Positions 1,643 to 55,139 of a stretch of 64,000 nucleotides of DNA are shown one piece after another. Position numbers and translations under genes: made by a program. The stretch is from Patescibacteria group bacterium. Its GTDB lineage: Bacteria; Patescibacteriota; WWE3; UBA101185; UBA10185. The stretch lies in the NCBI GenBank assembly GCA_018825365.1, contig JAHJEV010000003.1:174619-238618 (forward strand), in the 5' to 3' direction. Each line of letters starts with the position of its first letter. Positions within the stretch are counted from its first letter, which is position 1. A model generated the notes under the pieces. The model was not told where the DNA came from, made no database searches, and was given only the letters and a program-made list of their open reading frames with translations.

Positions 1643-3060
1643 AGTTTTGGTTTTAACCTATGAAATTCCGTTTCGTTTTGAAATTTTTTAGCCACGTTTA
1701 AGATCATATCTTCATCATACATTTTTCCAATAAACTGAATTCCCACAGGGAGACCTTCAGATAAACCACAGGGAATACTGATTCCCGTAATTCCCGCGAT
1801 AGCGCTTGGTTCTGACAACACAGCCATTAATTCTCCAAACATTGAAGATTTTTCACCCCCACCTAATTTCATAGCAACACAGGGAAGAGTGGGCGCTACT
1901 AATAAGTCAACTTCCTCGAAAGCCTTATTAAAATCCTCAATTATTAAGGTCCTTACTCTCTGGGCCTTTTGGTAGGCACCGCTTAATGTTGCGTTTAAGG
2001 AGTAAGACCCAAGCATTATTCTTTTCCTGGCTTCAAATCCAAAACTACCTCTATCATTTCCATATCTTATTCCGTCGTACCTCGCTAGATTTGATGACAC
2101 CTCAGATCTTTGAATTATCGTATAAACTGCGATTGAGTATTTTGGATCCAGTAGATCCATGTCAATAATCTCCGCGCCCAAATCTTTCAGAATCTTTAAG
2201 GCCTCGTCAATTCTTTTTCTTACACCCTCTTCCATCTCTAATTTAAAATACGATCTAGGTTTTCCGATTCTTAGTCCTTTTAATGTAAATTCCTTACTTA
2301 AATAATCCGGCACTGGTACGCTGGAAGTTGTGGCGTCATTTACATCTTTACCGGCAATTACTTTTAAAACAAAGGCTGCATCCTCAACTGTTTTTGTTAT
2401 TATACCCGGACTATCAGTAGACGAAGCCATAGCAATGACTCCGTATCTACTTACTCTTCCATAGGACGGTTTAAGGCCTGCAACACCGCACCAAGAAGCC
2501 GGCGTTCTTATGCTGTCTGCTGTTTCTGTGCCTGTTGCAAAAATACACATACCAGAAGCGACGGCCGCAGCGGATCCTCCAGATGACCCCCCAGACATTC
2601 TTTTTATGTTCCAAGGGTTTCTGGTTGGGAAAAAATCAGATGTTTCCGTGGACGAACCATGTGCGAATGCGTCCATGTTGGTTTTTCCTAAAAGAATAGC
2701 TCCCGCTTCCTTAAGTCTTCCCGTTACGGTAGATTCATAAGGCGGAATGTAATTATTTAAAATGTTTGAGCTAGCCGTTGTAAGAACTCCTTTAGTAGAA
2801 TAATTATCTTTACATGCATAGGGAATTCCCAAAAGTGACTTTCTTTCAAATATCACGGCTCCTTCTTTTTCAATTTCTTTATCGGCAACCTCCGCCTGCT
2901 TTAAGGCAAGCTCTCCTGTAACGGTTACAAAGGCCTTTATTTTCTTATCGTGTTTTTTTATAGTTGTGAGACAAGATTTTGTTAAATCAACTGATGTAAA
3001 CTTCCCAGTTTTTAAACCCTCTAAAGCTTCTGATAAATTGAGTTTGTTTAAATCTTTCAT
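1639..3060 (-). CDS. gatA: Glu-tRNA(Gln)/Asp-tRNA(Asn) amidotransferase subunit A
   Basis: Amidase signature GGSSGGSAAAVASG with a Ser-cisSer-Lys context. 473 aa. Immediately downstream of gatC. Confidence 0.95.
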   Translation of the reverse strand: MKDLNKLNLSEALEGLKTGKFTSVDLTKSCLTTIKKHDKKIKAFVTVTGELALKQAEVADKEIEKEGAVIFERKSLLGIPYACKDNYSTKGVLTTASSNILNNYIPPYESTVTGRLKEAGAILLGKTNMDAFAHGSSTETSDFFPTRNPWNIKRMSGGSSGGSAAAVASGMCIFATGTETADSIRTPASWCGVAGLKPSYGRVSRYGVIAMASSTDSPGIITKTVEDAAFVLKVIAGKDVNDATTSSVPVPDYLSKEFTLKGLRIGKPRSYFKLEMEEGVRKRIDEALKILKDLGAEIIDMDLLDPKYSIAVYTIIQRSEVSSNLARYDGIRYGNDRGSFGFEARKRIMLGSYSLNATLSGAYQKAQRVRTLIIEDFNKAFEEVDLLVAPTLPCVAMKLGGGEKSSMFGELMAVLSEPSAIAGITGISIPCGLSEGLPVGIQFIGKMYDEDMILNVAKKFQNETEFHRLKPKL

Positions 3061-3404: not shown

Positions 3405-4310
3405 TTACATCGATTTCAATCTCTTGATTCTTTCCTCAATCGGCGGGTGGGTATCAAATAGATTTGAGACAGAACTCTTAATTTTGTTTCTTACAGGGTC
3501 GGTGATGTATAAATGGGCCGTAGCACTGTTTGCTACCTCAAGAATTTCTGTATCCTGACTTATTTTTCTCAAAGCATCCGCCAGACCTCTAGGATACCTC
3601 GTAATAAGTGCAGCTGTTGAGTCCGCCAGAAACTCACGCTTTCTGCTTACAGCAAGCTTTATGAGAGTTGCAACAAAGGGGCTTAAAATAAGGAGGACAA
3701 GACCCACCAAAAATAAAATCCCTCCAAGTTCTCCCTCACTACTACTGCTTCTCCTCCGACCTCTGAAAAATAAACCTCTTGTAAACCAGTCTGCTAACAA
3801 AGATATTGTTCCAACAAGAATTGTAACTATACACATAAGTCTCGTATCAAAATTTCCAATATGAGACATCTCATGGGCAACAACACCTTCAAGTTCCCTT
3901 TTATCAAGTCTATGAATTATGCCACTTGTAAAGCAGATAGTTGAATGTTGAGGGTCCCTTCCAGTTGCAAATGCGTTCATCGAAGAATCGTCTATTATGT
4001 ACACCTTAGGCTTTGGGATACCTGATGCAATACACATATTTTCAACAAGGTTGTGGAGATCCGGAGCTTCCTGGGGAGTAACTTCTTTGGCTTTAGAAAC
4101 TGCAAGAACAACCTTATCTGAGCTATAGTACGAAAATAGACCGGAAAATCCAGCAATAATTAAAGCAAAACTTAAAAATGAGATTCCACTTCCGTCATAA
4201 AAGTAGTTTCCAACAAACCATCCAATAAAGCATGTGACCGCAACAAAAAATACCATAATAACAAAAGTGTCCCTCTTATTTGAGCCAATGTTTTGATATA
4301 TGTTTGGCAT
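3405..4310 (-). CDS. htpX: zinc metalloprotease HtpX (M48 family)
   Basis: HEMSHI HExxH motif and N-terminal TM helices. It is adjacent to lemA, a common pairing. Confidence 0.85.
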   Translation of the reverse strand: MPNIYQNIGSNKRDTFVIMVFFVAVTCFIGWFVGNYFYDGSGISFLSFALIIAGFSGLFSYYSSDKVVLAVSKAKEVTPQEAPDLHNLVENMCIASGIPKPKVYIIDDSSMNAFATGRDPQHSTICFTSGIIHRLDKRELEGVVAHEMSHIGNFDTRLMCIVTILVGTISLLADWFTRGLFFRGRRRSSSSEGELGGILFLVGLVLLILSPFVATLIKLAVSRKREFLADSTAALITRYPRGLADALRKISQDTEILEVANSATAHLYITDPVRNKIKSSVSNLFDTHPPIEERIKRLKSM

Positions 4311-5197: not shown

Positions 5198-6949
5198 TTA
5201 TCTTATACTTAAATGCTTAACAAATTTTTCGTAAGGCAGTGTATTTAAGATATCTTTTTTCTCGGCCCAACCCCTTCTTGCGTTGTCTATCCCGTATTTC
5301 ATATAGTCTAGCTGGTCAATTGAATGAGCATCTGAGTTTATAACAAGTTTAACACCCCACGAAATTGCACTTTTAATCAGATCATCAGGAAGATCAAGTC
5401 TATTTGGTTGACCATTTATTTCTAAAATAACTCCCCTGTCCCTTGCTGCATCAAAAATCTTATTCCAATCAGGATCTGACGGATCTCTCTCGTTTAACAT
5501 TCTTCCTGAAGGATGAGCAATTATATTCACATAAGGATTTTCAATTGCTGAAAGAAGCCGTTTGGTTACGGTCTTTTTATCTTGATTTAACGATGTGTGA
5601 ATTCCTGCTATTACAAAATCTAGATTCTTAAGAATATCTTCCGGGAGGGCTAAAGATTCGTCCACCGATATATTCACCTCGTATCCATATAAAACTTTGA
5701 CATCTTTTTGGGAAGTATTAATCTCATCAATTTTTTTCCTTGTATCACGTATCGTTTTTAAAACAGTCCCTAAACCTCGGGATTGTATACTTGGGGAGTG
5801 GTCGGTAATTCCGAGGTATTCGTACCCAAGATTTTTTGCTGCCTCAACCATCTCCTCAATGGTATTTAGACCATCTGAAAAATTCGTGTGGACATGCAAA
5901 TCCCCTTTAATATCTTTAAGGTCGATAAGTTCCGGTAGTTTATTTTTTAGTGCTGCTTCAATTTCAAAATTCCCATGTCTTATCTCAGGGGGAATATATG
6001 GAAGTCCGATTTCTCTATAGAAACCCCTTTCACCTGAAAACTCCTTAACATTATCGCCCCTTTTAATCCCATACTCAGAAAGGGACATTCCTTTAGTTAA
6101 AGCGTGATTTCTAAGTAAAATATTGTGCTGTTTTGAACCTGTGAAATATTGAAGCATTGCCCCGTAAGCCTGCGGTGTGCTTACTCTAATGTCAACCTGA
6201 ACCTCATTTTTTAATACAACACTGGCTTTTTTGTCCCCCTCAACCAAAATTTCCTCAACTTCCGGAAATTTTAAAAAGTGTTTTATTACACTTTCGGGCT
6301 TGTTAGTTGCGATTGGTATATCCAAATCCCCAATTGTTGGATTTCTTCTCCTAAAAGAACCGGCTGCCTCCATTTCTACAACTTCTTTGCATTTTTCCAT
6401 ATGTTTTTTGATCCGATCAACTATCTCTTCGGCATGGATAATAAGCAGTCTTTGCTTTAAATTTTTAGTCATCTTCAGCTCACCTATCGCATCCTGTATA
6501 GATTTCTCCATTTTTTCACCAAAGCCTTCCAATACTTGAATTTTTCCCTTTTCAGCCGCATCCTTTAGCTTATCTAAGGCTGTTTCTCTATCACCAAGCT
6601 TAAAAGCCAGTGCGAGTTTGTATGCTCTTTTAGCCCCAATACCTCTTAAACCAATAAGAGCAAACATTCCCTCGGGTAAGTCCTCTTTTATACTTTCAAA
6701 CTCAGATACAACGCCGGTTGAGAACAACTCGTTAAGATGAGCCTCAATTCCCGGACCGACACCGGGGATTTCTTTAAGTCTTTTGTTTTCCCAAAGGTCA
6801 TAAATAGAAACTGTGATATTATCTAATATTGAAATAGCGTTTTGATAGGCTCGTACACGGAAGGGATTGACGCCCTTTACTTCCATCGCGGCGAGAATCT
6901 CTTTAAGTAAAGTTACAACTGCCTTATTTGAGAGTCTTTTTCCTTCCAT
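5198..6949 (-). CDS. polX: DNA polymerase X family protein with C-terminal PHP phosphoesterase domain
   Basis: HhH/pol-beta-like N-terminal half (GVGPGIEAHL, nucleotidyltransferase GDLDI). PHP motifs are present (DLHVHTNFSDG, GITDHS). Confidence 0.85.
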   Translation of the reverse strand: MEGKRLSNKAVVTLLKEILAAMEVKGVNPFRVRAYQNAISILDNITVSIYDLWENKRLKEIPGVGPGIEAHLNELFSTGVVSEFESIKEDLPEGMFALIGLRGIGAKRAYKLALAFKLGDRETALDKLKDAAEKGKIQVLEGFGEKMEKSIQDAIGELKMTKNLKQRLLIIHAEEIVDRIKKHMEKCKEVVEMEAAGSFRRRNPTIGDLDIPIATNKPESVIKHFLKFPEVEEILVEGDKKASVVLKNEVQVDIRVSTPQAYGAMLQYFTGSKQHNILLRNHALTKGMSLSEYGIKRGDNVKEFSGERGFYREIGLPYIPPEIRHGNFEIEAALKNKLPELIDLKDIKGDLHVHTNFSDGLNTIEEMVEAAKNLGYEYLGITDHSPSIQSRGLGTVLKTIRDTRKKIDEINTSQKDVKVLYGYEVNISVDESLALPEDILKNLDFVIAGIHTSLNQDKKTVTKRLLSAIENPYVNIIAHPSGRMLNERDPSDPDWNKIFDAARDRGVILEINGQPNRLDLPDDLIKSAISWGVKLVINSDAHSIDQLDYMKYGIDNARRGWAEKKDILNTLPYEKFVKHLSIR

Positions 6950-7047
6950 AGTTTAATTTTATCAAAAATAGCGCCTTGAAGCAGGGGTTTTTCTTTTGTT
7001 GACCAGAAAATCCTTTACTGATAGTATAGGGACTGCATTGTGAATGT

Positions 7048-7125
7048 GGGGTCGTAGCTCAGCTAGGTTAGAGCGCTGCTCTGTCACAGCAGAGGTCACG
7101 GGTTCGAATCCCGCCGGCCCCGCCA
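7048..7125 (+). tRNA. tRNA-Asp (anticodon GTC)
   Basis: Manual cloverleaf: acceptor GGGGTCG/CGGCCCC, D-arm GCTC-AGCTAGGTTA-GAGC, anticodon loop CTGTCAC, T-loop TTCGAAT, encoded CCA. An upstream promoter-like TTGACC-N17-TAGTAT lies at 6999-7027. Confidence 0.85.
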
Positions 7126-7183
7126 CGATAAATTGCCCGTTTCCTAAATGCTCTGTTTTTCCAATTTTGGTTAGGTTAAAAGA

Positions 7184-7230
7184 AAGAACCTCAGCTTTTT
7201 TGGTTTTTAAGCCTAAAAGTTGAGGTTCTT
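7184..7230 (-). terminator. rho-independent terminator hairpin
   Basis: Inverted repeat AAGAACCTCAGCTTTT / AAAAGTTGAGGTTCTT (16 bp, 1 mismatch) with a 15-nt loop. It sits 18 nt after the stop of the 7249..7623 gene and is T-rich downstream on the minus strand. Confidence 0.6.
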
Positions 7231-7248
7231 GATTTCTATGGCAGAAGG

Positions 7249-7623
7249 CTAAGCGAGATTGCAACCGCTGAGCATAATCATGCCACTGCCTGCGAGATCA
7301 TTTGCATCTTTTCCGGTTATACCGAGGGTTGCAGGAGTGATGACGTCCCAAAAGCCCAGCGCTTTGCCGACCGCGAACAGAATGAACGCTGTGCGCTGGC
7401 TTCCAATGACAGCACCTACTTCAATGTACGAGGGTCCTTCTGAAAGAGCGTGAGGTCCTTCGTACCCGGCGAGAAGCTGTTTCAGAGAATCCTTGTTCGC
7501 TTGAGCTTTCGGCGTGTTGACGGCCACCTTAAGATTGTGGATCTGTACAACAGTCGTGTCGGGGGAGTCTTCCTTTTCGCTGAGACAGCCCATCAAAAGA
7601 TCGTGTAACTTCTGAAGATCCAT
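7249..7623 (-). CDS. hypothetical protein; GC-rich (~50% vs ~35% locally), likely horizontally acquired
   Basis: Long ORF with strikingly elevated GC. The second Met (MDLQKLHDLL...) is preceded by GGAGGAA at RBS spacing, so the start is probably 7623 rather than 7635. No recognisable domain. Confidence 0.55.
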   Translation of the reverse strand: MDLQKLHDLLMGCLSEKEDSPDTTVVQIHNLKVAVNTPKAQANKDSLKQLLAGYEGPHALSEGPSYIEVGAVIGSQRTAFILFAVGKALGFWDVITPATLGITGKDANDLAGSGMIMLSGCNLA

Positions 7624-7777
7624 GTGTTCCTCCAATTCGTTGATTTGTAGAGCCTTATTTGGCTTTTATGCTACGCATTTTACCATAGTAATCTACTTAT
7701 GTAAACTACAGGTTAAGCGTGTTTTTACAGCACATTCCTTTCTAAAACAGCACTTTTGTTACTGGACACTGAGCTAA

Positions 7778-7810
7778 AAAAGTTCCAAGTACGTCCCACA
7801 CGCCCCGCCA
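7778..7810 (+). repeat. 33-bp direct repeat, copy 1 (AAAAGTTCCAAGTACGTCCCACACGCCCCGCCA)
   Basis: One of three near-identical copies at 7778, 8400 and 9022, with a 622-bp period. The 3' part GCCCCGCCA equals the tRNA-Asp acceptor/CCA end and the 5' part GTTCCAAGT resembles its T-loop. Confidence 0.9.
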
Positions 7811-7852
7811 GTTAAAAAACCAAACCTTTGGTTACTCTAGCAAGCTCCAAAA

Positions 7853-7860
7853 TGTATAAT
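7853..7860 (+). promoter_or_regulatory. extended -10 promoter element (TGTATAAT) driving a leaderless transcript
   Basis: TGnTATAAT ends 6 nt before the ATG at 7867, so the predicted TSS coincides with the A of the start codon. No Shine-Dalgarno sequence is present. Confidence 0.45.
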
Positions 7861-7866
7861 GTGTTT

Positions 7867-8400
7867 ATGAAAACCATCGATCTATCCCAACCTCTTTATG
7901 ATGGAATGGATGTTTACCCAGGTGATCCCAAGGTACATATAAAACAAATTCACACTTTGGATAAAGAGGGTTGGAGACTTAGATACCTTCAATTCTCAAC
8001 CCACATTGGTACCCATGCAGATGCCCTTGCCCATATGGACAATAAAGGAGCAACGATCGATAAAATACCTATCAGTAAATTTATAGGTAAAACGGTACTG
8101 GTTAAACCCAGTGACACTTTTCCCAAAGAAGTCGGTCTCGCCTTCAGAGATAGCATCTTAGGAGTGGATCTTTTAAAGAAAATCATAGAGGCAAAACCAC
8201 TCTTTGTCGTAGTTGGAGGTAAGAGTGACTTTGAGCTTGAGATGGAGAGAAAGCTTCTTCAGGCTGGAATTATCACAATGGCTGAGTTGGTAAATATGGA
8301 CAAATTACCAAGAAATAAACCTTTTATGTTCTACGGAGTTCCACTAAATATCAAAGACGGAGATGGTTCTCCGATTAGGGCGTTTGCAGTTATAGAGTAA
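7867..8400 (+). CDS. cyclase family protein / kynurenine formamidase-like
   Basis: HxGTHxDxxxH metal-binding motif (STHIGTHADALAHM). N-terminus MKTIDLSQPLYDGMDVYPGDP is typical of the family. The ORF-track start at 7828 is a TTG; the ATG at 7867 is preferred. Confidence 0.75.
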   Translation: MKTIDLSQPLYDGMDVYPGDPKVHIKQIHTLDKEGWRLRYLQFSTHIGTHADALAHMDNKGATIDKIPISKFIGKTVLVKPSDTFPKEVGLAFRDSILGVDLLKKIIEAKPLFVVVGGKSDFELEMERKLLQAGIITMAELVNMDKLPRNKPFMFYGVPLNIKDGDGSPIRAFAVIE

Positions 8401-8432
8401 AAAGTTCCAAGTACGTCCCACACGCCCCACCA
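8400..8432 (+). repeat. 33-bp direct repeat, copy 2
   Basis: AAAAGTTCCAAGTACGTCCCACACGCCCCACCA, with one substitution relative to copies 1 and 3. It lies between the convergent ends of the cyclase and glycosylase genes. Confidence 0.9.
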
Positions 8433-8438
8433 AGAAAG

Positions 8439-8993
8439 CTATAGGAGGTATCTATAAGGATTTTTGTTTCCCTTTAATCTACTGTTTATCCCAACTCTCT
8501 TTGCAGATTTAATAGATGAATGGAGATCCCCCGCATTCTCCAGATATAACTTATCTCCAGTTAGATCCTCACCATATAAACTTAGTGTTATTCCAAATGA
8601 TTTACATAAATTTCCAGGAGATTTTGTTAAATCAGATACTTTTTTAACACCTTTGTCAAAGTTTAACCTCATTATCTCAATACCATCTTTTGGTATAACA
8701 GCTCTTATGAAAACTACATCCGGGATATCTTTTTTGTTAACGACTACAGCAAGTTGGTAATGTAAACCATAAATGAGGTACACATAAGCGTAACCTCCCT
8801 CCTTATACATTATTTCAGTCCTTGGAGTTCTCCTATTTCCATGTGACACATCAATAAAAGCAGGGTACGCTTCGACTTCTGAAATAATTCCACTAACCAA
8901 ACCTTTTTCTGAATTATAAACCAGCTTTTTTCCGAGAAATTCTTTTGCTACATCTAGAGCGGGCTTTAAGTAAAAGCTTTTCTCAATCTTCAT
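8439..8993 (-). CDS. mpg: DNA-3-methyladenine glycosylase (Mpg/AAG family)
   Basis: Family signature SEVEAYPAFIDVSHGNRRTPRTEIMYKEGGYAYVYLIYGLHYQLAVVV, matching ETEAY...D.ASHA..G.T.RN..MF..G..YVY..YG.H.C.NVV. Confidence 0.8.
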   Translation of the reverse strand: MKIEKSFYLKPALDVAKEFLGKKLVYNSEKGLVSGIISEVEAYPAFIDVSHGNRRTPRTEIMYKEGGYAYVYLIYGLHYQLAVVVNKKDIPDVVFIRAVIPKDGIEIMRLNFDKGVKKVSDLTKSPGNLCKSFGITLSLYGEDLTGDKLYLENAGDLHSSIKSAKRVGINSRLKGNKNPYRYLL

Positions 8994-9021
8994 AGCTACA
9001 TTTTATCAAATTCCTGGAAAT

Positions 9022-9054
9022 AAAAGTTCCAAGTACGTCCCACACGCCCCGCCA
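9022..9054 (+). repeat. 33-bp direct repeat, copy 3
   Basis: AAAAGTTCCAAGTACGTCCCACACGCCCCGCCA, exactly 622 bp after copy 2. Confidence 0.9.
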
Positions 9055-9100
9055 GGAATCAATAACTCTATAAACGTAAAAAGTCATGTAAAATAATCGT

Positions 9101-9580
9101 ATGAGCAGTAACAATGACTCAGTATTCAAAAAATTATTTCCTAGAGTTCTTGTATTTATACTTGATTATTTAAGTTACATATCTCTTACCTATATAGTTA
9201 TTTTCTGTTTTGTAACTCTACTTGTTTTAGTTGCAGGTTCGCCTTTCGAAGCCTTCTTCATAAAAGTGTTACTTGTAACTCTACAAAGTAAAGAAACAAG
9301 TGTAACTCTCAATACCGGAGATATTATGAATGCATTTTTTATCTGGTGGTTAATATTAGGTACTTTCTTCAAAATCGTTAAAGAACTACTTGGCGTAAAT
9401 TTTAATAAAATAGTATTACCTCTTGTACTATTTATAACATTGGTAAGCACATTACTTCTGACCACTAATATTGGATCGTCTTTTGTACCAATTTTCTTGT
9501 TTGGTTTGTTTATAGTTAACTTTATTATTTACTATTCGTTATCAAGAATATCTGAGATAACTCGAAATTTTATAAGATAG
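9101..9580 (+). CDS. hypothetical polytopic membrane protein
   Basis: 159 aa and very hydrophobic (4-5 predicted TM helices). No SD sequence. Confidence 0.5.
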   Translation: MSSNNDSVFKKLFPRVLVFILDYLSYISLTYIVIFCFVTLLVLVAGSPFEAFFIKVLLVTLQSKETSVTLNTGDIMNAFFIWWLILGTFFKIVKELLGVNFNKIVLPLVLFITLVSTLLLTTNIGSSFVPIFLFGLFIVNFIIYYSLSRISEITRNFIR

Positions 9581-9698
9581 CATTTCTTAATAAATTTGAT
9601 GTAGGGTAGATTTTAATAATTAGAGTAGAACTCTATGAATTGTAAACTAACCAAATTTTAATTTCCTACGTACACTTTCTATTTGCTATCATTTACCA

Positions 9699-11207
9699 AT
9701 GAGAAAATTTCTCAGCAAACTTCTCCTTTTTCTATTGCTACTTTCCTGCTTTTCAATACTTTTTGTTCGAAAAATAAACTTAGCTACAGCTGACATTGGT
9801 AGACATATAAAAAACGGCGAAGTACTTCTAACTACAGGGAAAATTGTTTCTACAAACTTTTACTCATACACACAACCGGATTTAAAAGTGGTTAACCATC
9901 ACTGGTTAAGTGGTGTAATATTTTTTCTTGTCTATAAAGCATTCGGATTTTCAGGATTATCGTTTTTCTATGCAATCCTATCTGGTCTTGCGGTTTATCT
10001 TCTTTACTTAATTTCTAAAAAACAAGTTGGGGGCGACATTGCTTTTTTTGTCGTGATGCTTCTTCTTCCACTAATGTCGTATCGGGTTGAGGTTCGCCCC
10101 GAAGTCTTTAGTGTTCTTTTTATCTGTATTTACCTTTATCTACTGTTTGGCTACATTCGAAATGAAATTAATTTTAAATATTTGTTACTGTTTATTGCTT
10201 CAACCCAACTTTTTTGGGTTAATCTTCACATATTTTTCATAGTCGGCCCCTTTTTAATAGCTCTTTTCATTTTTGCTTTGTTTATTACCCACAATGTCAA
10301 ACGTGCAAAAAAACTTTTACCTGTGTTATTTCTATCGATTGCAGTTTGTTTTATTAACCCTTTTGGAATAAACGGGGTTTTAGAACCGCTGACAATACTT
10401 AGGACATACGGTTATAGAATCTACGAGAATCAACCACTTTTATTTGTACAGGGCTATAACCCTTCAATGATTTATTACTACGCTGATATCATATTTACTC
10501 TTGGGGTCGTGTATCTGGGGTTATTTATAGGATCTGCAAGAAAAAAACTTTGTACTGAGGATGTTATTGTTTTGACGCTTTTTGTCATTTTTGGTCTTGC
10601 CGCATTTGGGATGGTTCGTATGCTTTCTTTGTTCGGTTTTATTGCCTGTTTATTTTTTGCCTCTGTTTTGGAAAAAATTCCTAACACACTTATGAATGTA
10701 AGTTCTGCGATAAACTACTTATTGCTAGCCTCACTAGTCTCTATAGCTATTATTACCAGAAGTTTGGGATGGGGTCTTTACCCCGGGGTGCAAAATGGTG
10801 CCAGATTTTTTGTTGAGAACAACTTGAAAGGTCCAATTTTTAATAATTACGATATTGGAGGATATTTGATATTTAATTTGTTTCCAAAAGAAAAAGTATT
10901 TGTTGATAACAGGCCCGAGGCTTACTCTGTTTCGTTTCTTAAGGATACTTTAATAAAAATGCAGCAAGATGAAGAGGCCTGGAAGGAACTCTCGCCGAAG
11001 TTTAATTTTAACGTGATTTTTTTCTATCTTAATGACATGACTGATTGGGCGCAGCCCTTTTTACTAAGGCGGCTAGACGATCCGCAGTGGGTCCCGGTAT
11101 ATGGTGACAGTTTTACTCTGGTTTTTGTTAAAAATACACCAGAGAACCAAAGCATTATTCAAAGTTATAAAATTCCAAGAGAATCTTTCCGCCTAACAAA
11201 GCGTTAA
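9699..11207 (+). CDS. large polytopic membrane protein, possibly a GT-C-fold glycosyltransferase (PMT/ArnT-like)
   Basis: 502 aa with ~10 TM helices in the N-terminal two thirds and a soluble C-terminal domain. There is an acidic/His loop after TM1 (ADIGRHIKNGE). The family assignment is inference only. Confidence 0.5.
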   Translation: MRKFLSKLLLFLLLLSCFSILFVRKINLATADIGRHIKNGEVLLTTGKIVSTNFYSYTQPDLKVVNHHWLSGVIFFLVYKAFGFSGLSFFYAILSGLAVYLLYLISKKQVGGDIAFFVVMLLLPLMSYRVEVRPEVFSVLFICIYLYLLFGYIRNEINFKYLLLFIASTQLFWVNLHIFFIVGPFLIALFIFALFITHNVKRAKKLLPVLFLSIAVCFINPFGINGVLEPLTILRTYGYRIYENQPLLFVQGYNPSMIYYYADIIFTLGVVYLGLFIGSARKKLCTEDVIVLTLFVIFGLAAFGMVRMLSLFGFIACLFFASVLEKIPNTLMNVSSAINYLLLASLVSIAIITRSLGWGLYPGVQNGARFFVENNLKGPIFNNYDIGGYLIFNLFPKEKVFVDNRPEAYSVSFLKDTLIKMQQDEEAWKELSPKFNFNVIFFYLNDMTDWAQPFLLRRLDDPQWVPVYGDSFTLVFVKNTPENQSIIQSYKIPRESFRLTKR

Positions 11208-53804: not shown

Positions 53805-55139
53805 CTATCGGTTAGAACCTTTTAATAACCACTCTCGTTTGGTAAGCGTAGACTCCCTCAAATCTCCTGATAAAGAAAGCAATATTTTTGTGATTCTTGC
53901 TATATCGTCAACTATCTCCTGTTCGTTTACATTTGGTTGCACTGATGATGCAAACCTCCCGGTATATTCCACCTCCATTTCATAGAGCTTTCTTTCCGAA
54001 GTTTGACAAATATCGAAAGAAATGTGATATATCCTTCTTGTTTCCGGATTTTCAACCCAAAAAGCTTTTCTGTACCGATATAGCTCTCCCTGTAATCTAC
54101 CTTTTTTGAGTATCTCGGGTTGTATATTTTCGAATCTCTGTTTAGTCTCGGATCTTTTTAAAATACATTTAAGATTTTCAGAGTTACTACATACTTTTAC
54201 TTTCCCTTTTCTTACAACACTCATGTAGTCGGGACGCAGTAATACTTTGAATGATTCTTTGGAGTTTTTATAATACTGGTTGATACTAGACGACTCAAAA
54301 ACGTGTTTAAAATGGCTGGGTATCTTATACGCGTATTTTCCAGACCTAAGAGCATTAAATACTAACGGGAACACCGACTCAGTTTTTGATACCAGCTTTG
54401 ATTCTATCTCGCACTCTTTTAGTTCTTTTAGAAAAAATATACTATCCTTTTTATACATATACTTACAAAGTAAATTGTAAGCTTGGCCTTTTTTGGAAAT
54501 CACTGGAATGACTTTTAGATCCGATTTTAATTTTTCGATGAGACCAATAAGTTTTTTTGAGTTTCCTTTGGTCTTTATTTCTAACCTTGGATAAGGCTCC
54601 GTGCCAATCAACACGGGATTTTTTTGTTTGTTGTCGAAATAAAAGTATCTGGTATTTTTGTCTATGGAGAATCTTGCGTACACGCCTTTTCCGTCATTAT
54701 AAACATAATGTTGACGTTTATACTTAAGCATAAAAAACGGTCTTAATGTCATTATTTTTTTACCGTATTTTTTATTTGCGATGTCTAAAGCCTCTTTTAG
54801 AGTCACTCTTATACGAGTTTTGTATTTTAAATCATCCCTTCTTTCTTTAATGTCAAAAAACCATTTTCCTCGAAATGTTCTGGGTTCTGACTTGTGTTTA
54901 GCCGGAAGATACCTTCTGGTCTTCAAAGTCAGAAGAAAAGGCAAACTGTGATCGTCGTTTGAGAAGTATATTGTCTGAACCACCTCATTATCGGAAAATT
55001 TATGTCGCTCTAAATTTCGTTTTAATAAACCAATAAAATCGGGGGAGAACGGGATATACCTCTCCTCTTTTCTTTTAGGCAGGTCTGTTTTAATGGTTAT
55101 TATTTCATGCATAATGACGGCTTCTACGCCGAGAAACAT
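53805..55139 (-). CDS. hypothetical protein, possibly tandem triphosphate-tunnel (VTC-like + CYTH-like) domains
   Basis: N-terminal half has VQTIYFSNDDHSLPF...LKTRRY, resembling the VTC-domain YFD...RxRxY blocks. C-terminal half has ExExK-like ECEIESK and an acidic EMEVEY strand as in CYTH enzymes. Inferred from motifs only. Confidence 0.35.
   Translation of the reverse strand: MFLGVEAVIMHEIITIKTDLPKRKEERYIPFSPDFIGLLKRNLERHKFSDNEVVQTIYFSNDDHSLPFLLTLKTRRYLPAKHKSEPRTFRGKWFFDIKERRDDLKYKTRIRVTLKEALDIANKKYGKKIMTLRPFFMLKYKRQHYVYNDGKGVYARFSIDKNTRYFYFDNKQKNPVLIGTEPYPRLEIKTKGNSKKLIGLIEKLKSDLKVIPVISKKGQAYNLLCKYMYKKDSIFFLKELKECEIESKLVSKTESVFPLVFNALRSGKYAYKIPSHFKHVFESSSINQYYKNSKESFKVLLRPDYMSVVRKGKVKVCSNSENLKCILKRSETKQRFENIQPEILKKGRLQGELYRYRKAFWVENPETRRIYHISFDICQTSERKLYEMEVEYTGRFASSVQPNVNEQEIVDDIARITKILLSLSGDLRESTLTKREWLLKGSNR

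Follow-up and report, generated by a model that had tools for sequence, protein, structure and literature searches.

The tRNA-Asp gene in a genome of the WWE3 lineage of Patescibacteria is followed by a short tandem array of small modules, each of which ends in a near-identical copy of a 33-bp direct repeat. We analyzed this array within a stretch of 64,000 nucleotides (GenBank assembly GCA_018825365.1, contig JAHJEV010000003.1, positions 174,619 to 238,618), which we refer to as the window. In related genomes, the same repeat forms the far end of integrated elements that encode a large serine recombinase (LSR). The locus is very probably an accretion array, built up by an LSR integration system whose target in a WWE3-like Patescibacteria lineage is the tRNA-Asp 3' end.

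Repeats and modules at the tRNA-Asp gene

The 33-mer, AAAAGTTCCAAGTACGTCCCACACGCCCCGCCA, is present in exact form at two positions (R1 and R3 in Table 1) and with a single mismatch (G>A) at a third position between them (R2), as a first-pass annotation of the sequence had described. All three copies lie on the same strand as tRNA-Asp, with start-to-start spacings of 622 and 622 bp. No copies are expected by chance (100 dinucleotide-preserving shuffles), a search that allowed up to three mismatches found no further copies elsewhere in the 64-kb window, and a position-weight scan of the window returned the same three sites and no others. The last 9 nt of the 33-mer (GCCCCGCCA) are identical to the 3' end of tRNA-Asp, a correspondence that the first-pass annotation had also recognized. 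Only these 9 nt are identical, and identity across the last 20 nt is ~70-80%. Insertions start directly after the CCA of tRNA-Asp, and the 3' end of this gene (...GGTTCGAATCCCGCCGGCCCCGCCA) provides the left half of the integration site on the chromosome. A tRNA-like fold of the 33-mer was considered and dropped because T-arm pairing was absent on inspection.

The genes in the array are those reported initially, namely a GC-rich open reading frame (ORF), a cyclase gene on the plus strand and a 3-methyladenine glycosylase gene (Mpg) on the minus strand, the latter two now assigned to protein families (Table 1). The region of the GC-rich ORF has a GC content of 50-53%, compared with ~36% nearby, and its product has no match in Pfam or NCBIfam; we regard it as a putative foreign gene. 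The inverted repeat between this ORF and the tRNA gene resembles a bidirectional terminator. In an Rfam search of positions 6500-10000, the only match beyond the tRNA was a spurious, sub-threshold one to mir-186 on this hairpin. The start codon of the cyclase gene is backed by an identical 177-aa database protein (P0241), and the gene is probably leaderless. An exact-protein look-up for the Mpg protein of the window gave no record. The interiors of the cyclase and Mpg modules, 589 bp each, encode unrelated proteins on opposite strands. Those modules of this and related arrays whose upstream sequence was read have a promoter-like element of their own, mostly an extended -10 box just before a plus-strand start codon, and the closeness of these boxes to the start codons suggests leaderless mRNAs.

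Table 1. Coordinates of the tRNA-Asp gene, repeats, modules and genes of the array (positions in the window)
Feature	Position	Strand	Description
tRNA-Asp(GTC)	7048-7125	+	ARAGORN; Rfam 63.7 bits
Module 0	7126-7810		685 bp, nearest the tRNA; hairpin, GC-rich ORF and promoter-like site; R1 at right end
Inverted repeat	7179-7235		21-nt arms, 86% complementary, 15-nt loop; between tRNA-Asp and the stop codon of the GC-rich ORF
GC-rich ORF (ORF124)	7249-7623 (or to 7635)	-	124 aa; no family match
Promoter-like site in Module 0	7705-7677	-	promoter scan
R1, attR-type site	7778-7810	+	P arm AAAAGTTCCAAGTACGTCCCACAC plus core GCCCCGCCA in common with the tRNA end
Module 1	7811-8432		622 bp; cyclase gene; R2 at right end
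Extended -10 box	7853-7860		TGTATAAT; upstream of the cyclase gene in Module 1
Cyclase/arylformamidase-like gene	7867-8400	+	177 aa; Pfam PF04199; stop codon overlaps R2
R2, attR-type site	8400-8432	+	one mismatch (CCCCACCA)
Module 2	8433-9054		622 bp here, 625-626 bp in relatives; Mpg; R3 at right end
Mpg 3-methyladenine DNA glycosylase	8439-8993	-	PF02245 at 4.5e-42; TIGR00567
R3, attR-type site	9022-9054	+	exact consensus; closes the array on the right
Right flank of the array	9055-9085	+	GGAATCAATAACTCTATAAAC...; weak likeness to GTTATCAAAATC... of relatives (alignment A2)

Related arrays, full-length elements and the integration site

Related loci were collected by repeat-core scans of species-representative genomes and metagenomes, which yielded seven stretches, and more were reached through homologues of the flanking PolX gene. 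Each contig among the seven that reaches a tRNA gene carries the repeats downstream of tRNA-Asp or tRNA-Gln in the same orientation; the exception, L006, is a 1-kb fragment without a tRNA. All copies found but one belong to arrays or elements that start at tRNA-Asp or tRNA-Gln, and the remaining copy is linked to a cyclase gene ~2.5 kb from tRNA-Gln(CTG) (L022/L023). The 33-mer is therefore not the widespread intergenic motif that the first-pass annotation had named as a result that would count against its proposal. A scan of viral contigs with a 25-nt core of the repeat gave no matches.

The arrays differ between strains whose flanking genes are 94-100% identical. From the tRNA outward, the window and L029 hold ORF124, cyclase and Mpg modules, L001 holds an 81-aa ORF, a 226-aa ORF and Mpg, and L005 holds DUF1653 and Mpg. 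The L010 array consists of GH130, MazG, methyltransferase, HAD and 181-aa ORF modules, L002 has MazG as the only module after the tRNA, and L008, with a PolX that is 94% identical, has no modules. The repeats in tandem number three in the window, five in L010, three in L017 and three at tRNA-Gln in L007. Module 0 is not found in L001, L005, L008 or L010, the first, second and fourth of which have other modules in its place while L008 has none. Module 1 is missing from L001 and L005, and Module 2 is common to the window, L001, L005, L006 and L029. A shared distal Mpg module combined with variable tRNA-proximal modules fits serial insertion at the tRNA end. Module 2 would then be the oldest and most distal module, and Module 0 would be the newest because it is nearest the tRNA. 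This presence/absence polymorphism, which includes unoccupied sites, is strong and bears out the suggestion of a cassette-like modular array. No LSR was found by tblastn in the arrays of the window, L001, L005 and L010.

Full-length elements measure 4.7-6 kb (4700, 5301 and 5974 bp). Apart from a few small genes, they encode an LSR, a rolling-circle replication protein (Rep; REP_ORF2-G2P) and a single cargo gene, which varies and sits beside the far end of the element. In relatives they are integrated immediately behind the CCA of tRNA-Asp, with the LSR gene running antisense into the tRNA. Their far end is the 33-mer, and beyond it comes the sequence that adjoins the tRNA in genomes whose site is unoccupied. 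For example, L012, L013 and L014 encode an identical PolX protein. The site is unoccupied in L012 and L013, where the junction is tRNA-Asp...GCCCCGCCA|GTTATTCAGATAAAT, and is occupied in L014 by a 4.7-kb insert with an LSR (Resolvase, Recombinase and Zn_ribbon domains) and a Rep that ends in AAAAGTTCCAAGTACGTCCCACACCCTCCGCCA|GTTATTCAGATAAAT, the junctions having been read base by base. L001 and L008 form a second occupied/unoccupied pair. The R1 sequence of the window also terminates the LSR elements of L014 and L017, and in L017 the element at the tRNA is followed by two recombinase-less modules, with the consensus 33-mer delimiting all of them. The LSR proteins of L014, L017, L018 and L020 match PF00239, PF07508 and PF13408; their N-terminal domain is similar to TnpX (PDB 2mhc), and an RKSS motif is conserved in an alignment of the proteins (A1). 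The occupied and unoccupied sites, with the 33-mer at the far end of the element, agree with the earlier proposal of attR-type sites left by serial site-specific integration at tRNA-Asp, and they identify the enzyme encoded by full elements at this site in relatives as an LSR and not a tyrosine integrase.

A related element was also recovered in free form. Two contigs from different samples, L018 1-5428 (JGI Ga0116591_1001004) and L019 1-5340 (Ga0111547_1000807), are 100% identical and circularly permuted, and their terminal overlaps of 127 and 39 bp close a 5,301-bp circle. The attP of the circle reads ...TTTTTCCAATATCGTCCCACGCTCCCCGCCA|GTTATCAAAATCGCCAC..., in which an arm resembling the 33-mer (P) directly abuts the LSR gene's 3' end (P'); past the junction that follows ...TTTTTCCAATATCGTCCCACGCTCCCCGCCA|, the joined site reads GTTATCAAAATCGCCACTTTTTGA. 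With an LSR that is 72% identical, the circle is a related element and not the donor of the cassettes in the window. It may be a small plasmid or a temperate single-stranded DNA phage of Patescibacteria. Besides the LSR and Rep, its gene products are a protein whose DNA-binding domain is of the LexA type and three others (63, 299 and 323 aa) without a clear family. Its distant relatives L020 and L021 are listed as viral contigs in IMG/VR.

Taken together, these comparisons indicate that the 33-mer consists of the element-side arm of attP (P) and a core of 6-9 nt in common with the tRNA, and that each copy in the array represents an attR-type junction. Such a composition would explain why the copies are nearly identical to one another and match the tRNA only in their last 6-9 nt. 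The first-pass annotation had taken the repeat for a degenerate copy of the tRNA 3' segment, a view that the occurrence of the arm in the free circular form displaces; the P arm aligns with the T-loop/acceptor region of the tRNA only with a 4-nt insertion. The crossover would lie within the last 6 nt of the tRNA (CCGCCA), and attP would span roughly 56 bp (the 33-mer plus GTTATCAAAATCGCCACTTTTT), judging from the outer inverted repeat AAAAGT ... ACTTTT. This outer motif centres ~5 nt left of the CCA end, a placement that is compatible with published half-site geometry of LSRs.

On the right-hand side, GTTATCAAAATC...CCACTTTTTGA is common only to full elements and far-end flanks. In relatives, the GTTATCAAAATC... 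sequence follows the tRNA or the last repeat, and it is also the recombinase-side (P') arm of attP. The right flank of the array in the window is alike at only about 7/12 nt, and we tentatively take it for degraded sequence that probably derives from the original right half-site or from a recombinase gene's 3' end. Remnants of the LSR C-terminus were detected by tblastn in L008 (E = 0.002) and L001.

The last 30 nt of the L014 LSR gene are the reverse complement of the tRNA end, and the encoded protein ends in ...WRGRRDSNP. LSR frames (L014 6628-6657; L017 7833-7862; P0121-P0134) stay open past the att site and run antisense into the tRNA, where they terminate directly after ...WRGRRDSNP, and in the circular form the frame continues into the P arm (...WRGAWDDIGKM...). 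Since these frames have no stop codon before the att site, the C-terminal tail of the LSR changes upon integration, a peculiarity that has also been reported for dsiB of Dehalococcoides.

Targets other than tRNA-Asp are used as well. The L010 genome has a second array after tRNA-Gln(TTG), in which the repeats keep the GTTCCAA... arm and end in CCCAGCCA, the 3' end of that tRNA, and the tRNA-Gln array L007 and the element L020 have repeats with the same type of arm and ending. In L020, an IMG/VR contig, an LSR element (41% identical) with a similar arm is integrated in tRNA-Gln. LSR homologues are common in Patescibacteria (at least 120 matches), and many of them end in antisense translations of other tRNA 3' ends. 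L027 1-15250 (GCA_020047475.1, JAHZTK010000104.1) has two tRNA-Ser genes with a stack of at least four LSR elements around them, which indicates that serial integration does occur in this element family. One of the stacked elements encodes a Phage_CRI-type Rep and a 596-aa protein with a resolvase domain.

The cargo slot beside the P arm holds NIF3 in L014 and a methyltransferase in L027, on a backbone that is 89% identical. No internal P arm or pseudo-site was found at the boundary between backbone and cargo of the full elements; the only conserved feature there is a nested hairpin. This hairpin, CCCCACCGC...ATCACTTGC-TGGC-GCAAGTGAT...GCGGTGGGG, lies exactly at the boundary in L014 (~2950-3045) and L027 (~1133-1215) and may function as an origin of replication, a terminator or a signal for recombination. 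The cyclase gene, again directly adjoined by a P arm, is found in a further WWE3 genome (L022/L023) at a locus unrelated to this one, and a homologous cyclase in Woesebacteria is in a core context and has no P arm. In L022 (2961-5700), the cyclase and P arm are within a mosaic island downstream of tRNA-Gln(CTG) that also contains a DUF3800 gene, a displaced fragment of the tRNA-Gln 3' end (~4026-4058), transposase remnants, a GmrSD-type gene and a further fragment resembling the tRNA-Asp end (~5668-5692).

Origin and possible mobility of the small modules

How might an LSR system have given rise to an array of miniature modules? Probably, each module was brought in when an LSR recombined a circular molecule that bore P-core-P' with the junction nearest the tRNA. 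The array would then grow at the tRNA end, and each insertion would shift the older attR sites outward. The small modules, comprising a cargo gene and a P arm in 0.3-1.2 kb with a promoter of their own, may be satellites that are moved in trans, or they may be leftovers after loss of the LSR-Rep backbone. An LSR acting in trans would be encoded elsewhere or by a visiting element. We lean slightly toward trans-mobilizable or recently mobile cassettes over leftovers of backbone loss. Indirect support for a possible mobilization comes from the turnover of modules among strains, the cyclase with its P arm at a second locus, and the conservation of the sites above that of the coding sequences (CDSs).

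Several observations weigh against this explanation. The 64 kb of the window contain no LSR or Rep detectable by tblastn with three LSRs and three Reps, which matched only the antisense-tRNA tail, and Pfam found no recombinase among the 19 of ~50 ORFs that were scanned; the first-pass annotation had likewise seen no mobility gene in or near the array. Lacking an LSR and a Rep in the window, the array is non-autonomous. In addition, the right side of small-module junctions is not conserved (at most 0.35 bits per position), so most internal junctions have no recognizable P' half-site, which weakens the case for independent mobility of the modules. Canonical LSR attP sites have a P' half-site, and canonical LSRs recombine attP with attB and not with attL. 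Repeated insertion at an occupied tRNA junction would thus need a relaxed specificity for the right half-site, a property deduced from the arrays themselves. Finally, one site in L001 has 2/33 changes and the other contains a tripled CACACGCCC, in a strain whose Mpg CDS is 97.8% identical.

Two further points concern these junctions. A conserved P' at the left end of every small module was considered and rejected on the conservation values given above. Cassettes that start with (C/T)(A/T)ACTTT were noticed post hoc in three independent cases (four junctions, two of them with the same sequence), at R1 and R2/R5 of L010 and R1 of L002. The tripled 9-nt unit CACACGCCC in L001 (~1264-1214, minus strand; GTCCCACACGCCCCACACGCCCCACACGCCCCGCCA) is probably due to replication slippage inside the att site.

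An alternative origin is that full LSR elements integrated serially and subsequently lost their backbones by deletion, leaving cargo and P arm behind; the 33-mers would then be fossils, and nothing in the array would be mobile. This scenario deserves serious consideration, although we judge it to have somewhat less than an even chance of being correct. It is consistent with the position of the cargo beside the P arm in full elements, and the methyltransferase cassette of L010 is homologous (69%) to the part of the L027 element that comprises methyltransferase and P arm. The absence of a conserved right half-site in the small modules, the LSR C-terminal remnants at the far ends of arrays, the decay in the L001 sites and the lack of an LSR in the window also fit dead remnants. 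On the other hand, module sizes are bimodal, with 18 modules of 321-1166 bp, the full elements at the lengths given above and no intermediates, and the 18 modules contain no LSR or Rep fragments of the kind that pseudogenes would leave. The left end of each module falls exactly at the preceding CCA, which is not expected from random deletion. The sites also appear better preserved than their surroundings: between the window and L005, two 33-mers are identical at 64/66 positions and the Mpg CDS is 83% identical (binomial estimate, p ~5e-4). Moreover, the orientation of module genes is mixed, whereas the called backbone genes all point toward the tRNA, with only the NIF3 cargo of L014 differing.

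Carried further, the mobility of modules would make them true gene cassettes of an integron-like capture platform that is run by an LSR and not by IntI. We advance this idea tentatively and consider it possible but not the probable outcome. A single gene with its 33-bp P arm would leave the array as a circle of ~0.3-1.2 kb, and a recombinase acting in trans would insert this circle at the tRNA-Asp or tRNA-Gln 3' end. The recombinase would be provided by a rolling-circle element of ~5 kb that resembles a plasmid or phage.

Prophages or islands inserted by a tyrosine integrase can leave displaced, decayed copies of a tRNA 3' end as attR remnants, and the adjacency to a tRNA, the direct repeats on one strand and the 3' end in common with the tRNA would suit such a history. 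It is nevertheless very unlikely here. An island of this type should have long, near-identical repeats of the tRNA segment and an integrase gene at one end, whereas the match in this case is the short, partial one described above and the remainder of the repeat is element sequence that also occurs in attP of the free circle. Three copies that had decayed independently would not be 32/33 identical, and in relatives the recombinase encoded at these sites is an LSR. A tyrosine recombinase was found neither among the 19 Pfam-scanned ORFs of the window nor among genes called within 5-9 kb of related arrays. One ORF of the window (53805-55139, minus strand) was considered as a tyrosine integrase because of its N-terminal 'RYIPFSPDFIGLLK' and rejected, as it has no Pfam or PDB match and its translation is unlike one.

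Less likely still is an integron or CALIN-like array in which the 33-mers are folded, single-stranded attC sites for an IntI-type integrase. A strain-variable array whose modules hold one gene and have a single recombination site at one end does recall integrons. However, DNA folding of both strands of the three 33-mer sites with their flanks gave z-scores between -1.37 and +0.93 and no hairpin that was significant or shared, and the 33-bp site is shorter than attC sites, which measure 57-141 bp. The modules have their own promoters and mixed orientation, no IntI was found in the same set of ORFs and neighbouring genes, and the linked recombinase is an LSR.

The weakest proposal takes the 33-mer for a regulatory, terminator or REP-like motif of the host, or the 622-bp period for a sign of tandem duplication or of a structural constraint on length. 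It draws on the exact equality of the two spacings and can be set aside: the 33-mer is not in the other 61 kb of the window and has no terminator-like structure, and the module interiors are unrelated. The first-pass annotation had attached meaning to the nucleotide-exact spacing, which relatives do not share. L029 is 99.96% identical to the window across 7 kb, with a single 3-bp indel, and has spacings of 685, 622 and 625 bp. The Mpg module of L001 and L005 is likewise 625-626 bp, and spacings in other arrays range from 321 to 1166 bp. The second 622-bp spacing of the window results from a private 3-bp deletion inside Mpg relative to L029, L001 and L005, and the equality of the two spacings is a coincidence.

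Neighbouring genes, cargo and known systems

The array is embedded among housekeeping genes according to Pfam, with PolX upstream and a PMT_2-like glycosyltransferase and an S41 peptidase downstream, and with LemA and M48 genes also nearby. Between the last repeat and the PMT_2-like gene (9055-9690) is an ORF for a predicted membrane protein of 159 aa (9101-9580) without a family match. This segment is an indel that is missing from L001, L005 and L008; it was considered as a fourth cassette and rejected because it has no terminal P arm, even at low score. The 444-aa ORF at 53805-55139, mentioned above, lies between uvrB and a DedA-like gene.

As for cargo, the array in the window carries a DNA-repair glycosylase, a cyclase-family hydrolase and the foreign gene without a family match, and arrays elsewhere carry MazG, methyltransferase, HAD, GH130, DUF1653 and a weak match to an HhH-GPD-type glycosylase. 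In function, the array would be a hot spot that supplies accessory genes beside a conserved tRNA. DNA repair and nucleotide housecleaning recur among these genes, with Mpg in the window (8439-8993), the weak HhH-GPD-type match in L017 (1099-1833) and two different MazG-like genes in L002 (8669-8998) and L010 (6319-6627). The array also adjoins the gene for the PolX repair polymerase, and the repair theme of the cargo may be due to chance or may be functional.

Serine recombinases have been found before to produce similar tandem arrays, at tmRNA and rlmH genes, which gives the system more precedent than the first-pass annotation had implied. In Dehalococcoides, islands at ssrA are arranged in tandem between direct repeats of the RNA gene's 3' end, and those lacking an integration module have been discussed as cis-mobilizable elements (PMC3146451). 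The serine recombinase gene of these islands adjoins attL, its 3' end overlaps attL or the RNA gene, and its stop codon is outside the island (PMC3146451). The Patescibacteria arrays resemble the ssrA islands in their tandem arrangement downstream of a t(m)RNA-type gene with direct repeats of its 3' end, in an element-specific motif just upstream of the repeat that cannot be aligned with the RNA gene, in an LSR gene beside attL whose 3' end overlaps attL or the RNA gene and whose stop codon is outside the island, and in units without an integration module. They differ in their targets, which are tRNA-Asp and tRNA-Gln (and tRNA-Ser in relatives) and not ssrA, in a core of 6-9 nt in place of 20 bp, and in full elements of ~5 kb that have a rolling-circle Rep and are recovered as circles. 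A second small recombinase of the DsiA/CcrA type was not found here, the modules are single genes of 0.3-1.2 kb in contrast to multi-gene islands, and the hosts are Patescibacteria.

The composite islands formed by the staphylococcal cassette chromosome (SCC) provide a second parallel. It was demonstrated experimentally that Ccr from SCCmec or from a plasmid excises and circularizes tandem att-bounded cassettes beside SCCmec (PMC11470126). Like SCC and SCCmec islands (CcrAB/CcrC), the arrays described here involve LSRs and stacks of cassettes with short att sites at one chromosomal site, and att-bounded cassettes lie in tandem beside a recombinase-bearing cassette. Unlike these arrays, SCC targets the 3' end of rlmH and employs CcrA with CcrB, or CcrC, and its mobilization has been shown by experiment, whereas that of the Patescibacteria modules is a proposal drawn from sequence comparison. 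SCC cassettes range from multi-kb lengths to tens of kb. The cis-mobilizable elements (CIMEs) related to streptococcal integrative conjugative and integrative mobilizable elements embody the same concept, as they are recombinase-less, att-flanked segments that arise by serial accretion at tRNA genes and can be mobilized by the recombinase of a related element. CIME systems mostly have tyrosine integrases, long identical direct repeats and segments of kilobase size.

The arrays share with integrons their mostly single-gene modules with one site each, a predicted growth next to the primary site, a fast turnover among strains and a recombinase that may be encoded outside the cassette. They differ from integrons in relying on a serine recombinase in place of the tyrosine recombinase IntI, in a 33-bp half-site of the double-stranded type without a hairpin in place of a folded attC, in the promoters and mixed orientation of the modules, and in having a tRNA 3' end as the primary site. 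The locus is not a member of the integron family. Full-text literature searches found no prior description of such arrays in Patescibacteria. With the ssrA islands and SCC as the closest analogues, the single-gene module size of 0.3-1.2 kb and the host group appear to be the new aspects of the locus, and the tRNA targets, the small circular parent that encodes a Rep and the miniature modules set the array apart from both.

A practical consequence concerns the detection of such arrays. In L030 (a Logan SRR2544004 contig), which is a separate assembly of the window strain, the contig end falls exactly inside the first 33-mer. This indicates that the 33-mers fragment short-read assemblies, so that arrays are under-represented in metagenome-assembled genomes. 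The sequence GTTCCAAGTACGTCCCAC followed by the tRNA end may serve as an annotation marker for accessory islands in these genomes. The arrays also offer natural attP/attB pairs for a new clade of LSRs, enzymes that are used in genome engineering.

The genomes of Patescibacteria, ultra-small bacteria also referred to as the candidate phyla radiation, are tiny, and the ways in which these bacteria acquire and exchange accessory genes are poorly understood. The locus points to one route of gene gain, in which circular elements of ~5 kb with an LSR and a rolling-circle Rep target tRNA genes at their 3' ends and leave, or feed, stacks of single-gene modules. Were the modules immobile, the arrays would still record successive integrations, with the oldest module farthest from the tRNA. 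If the modules are mobile, they would represent a second, mechanistically independent route to the one-gene-one-site architecture of integrons, built on a serine recombinase, and a true capture platform would give genome-reduced Patescibacteria a dedicated slot for accessory genes with fast turnover.

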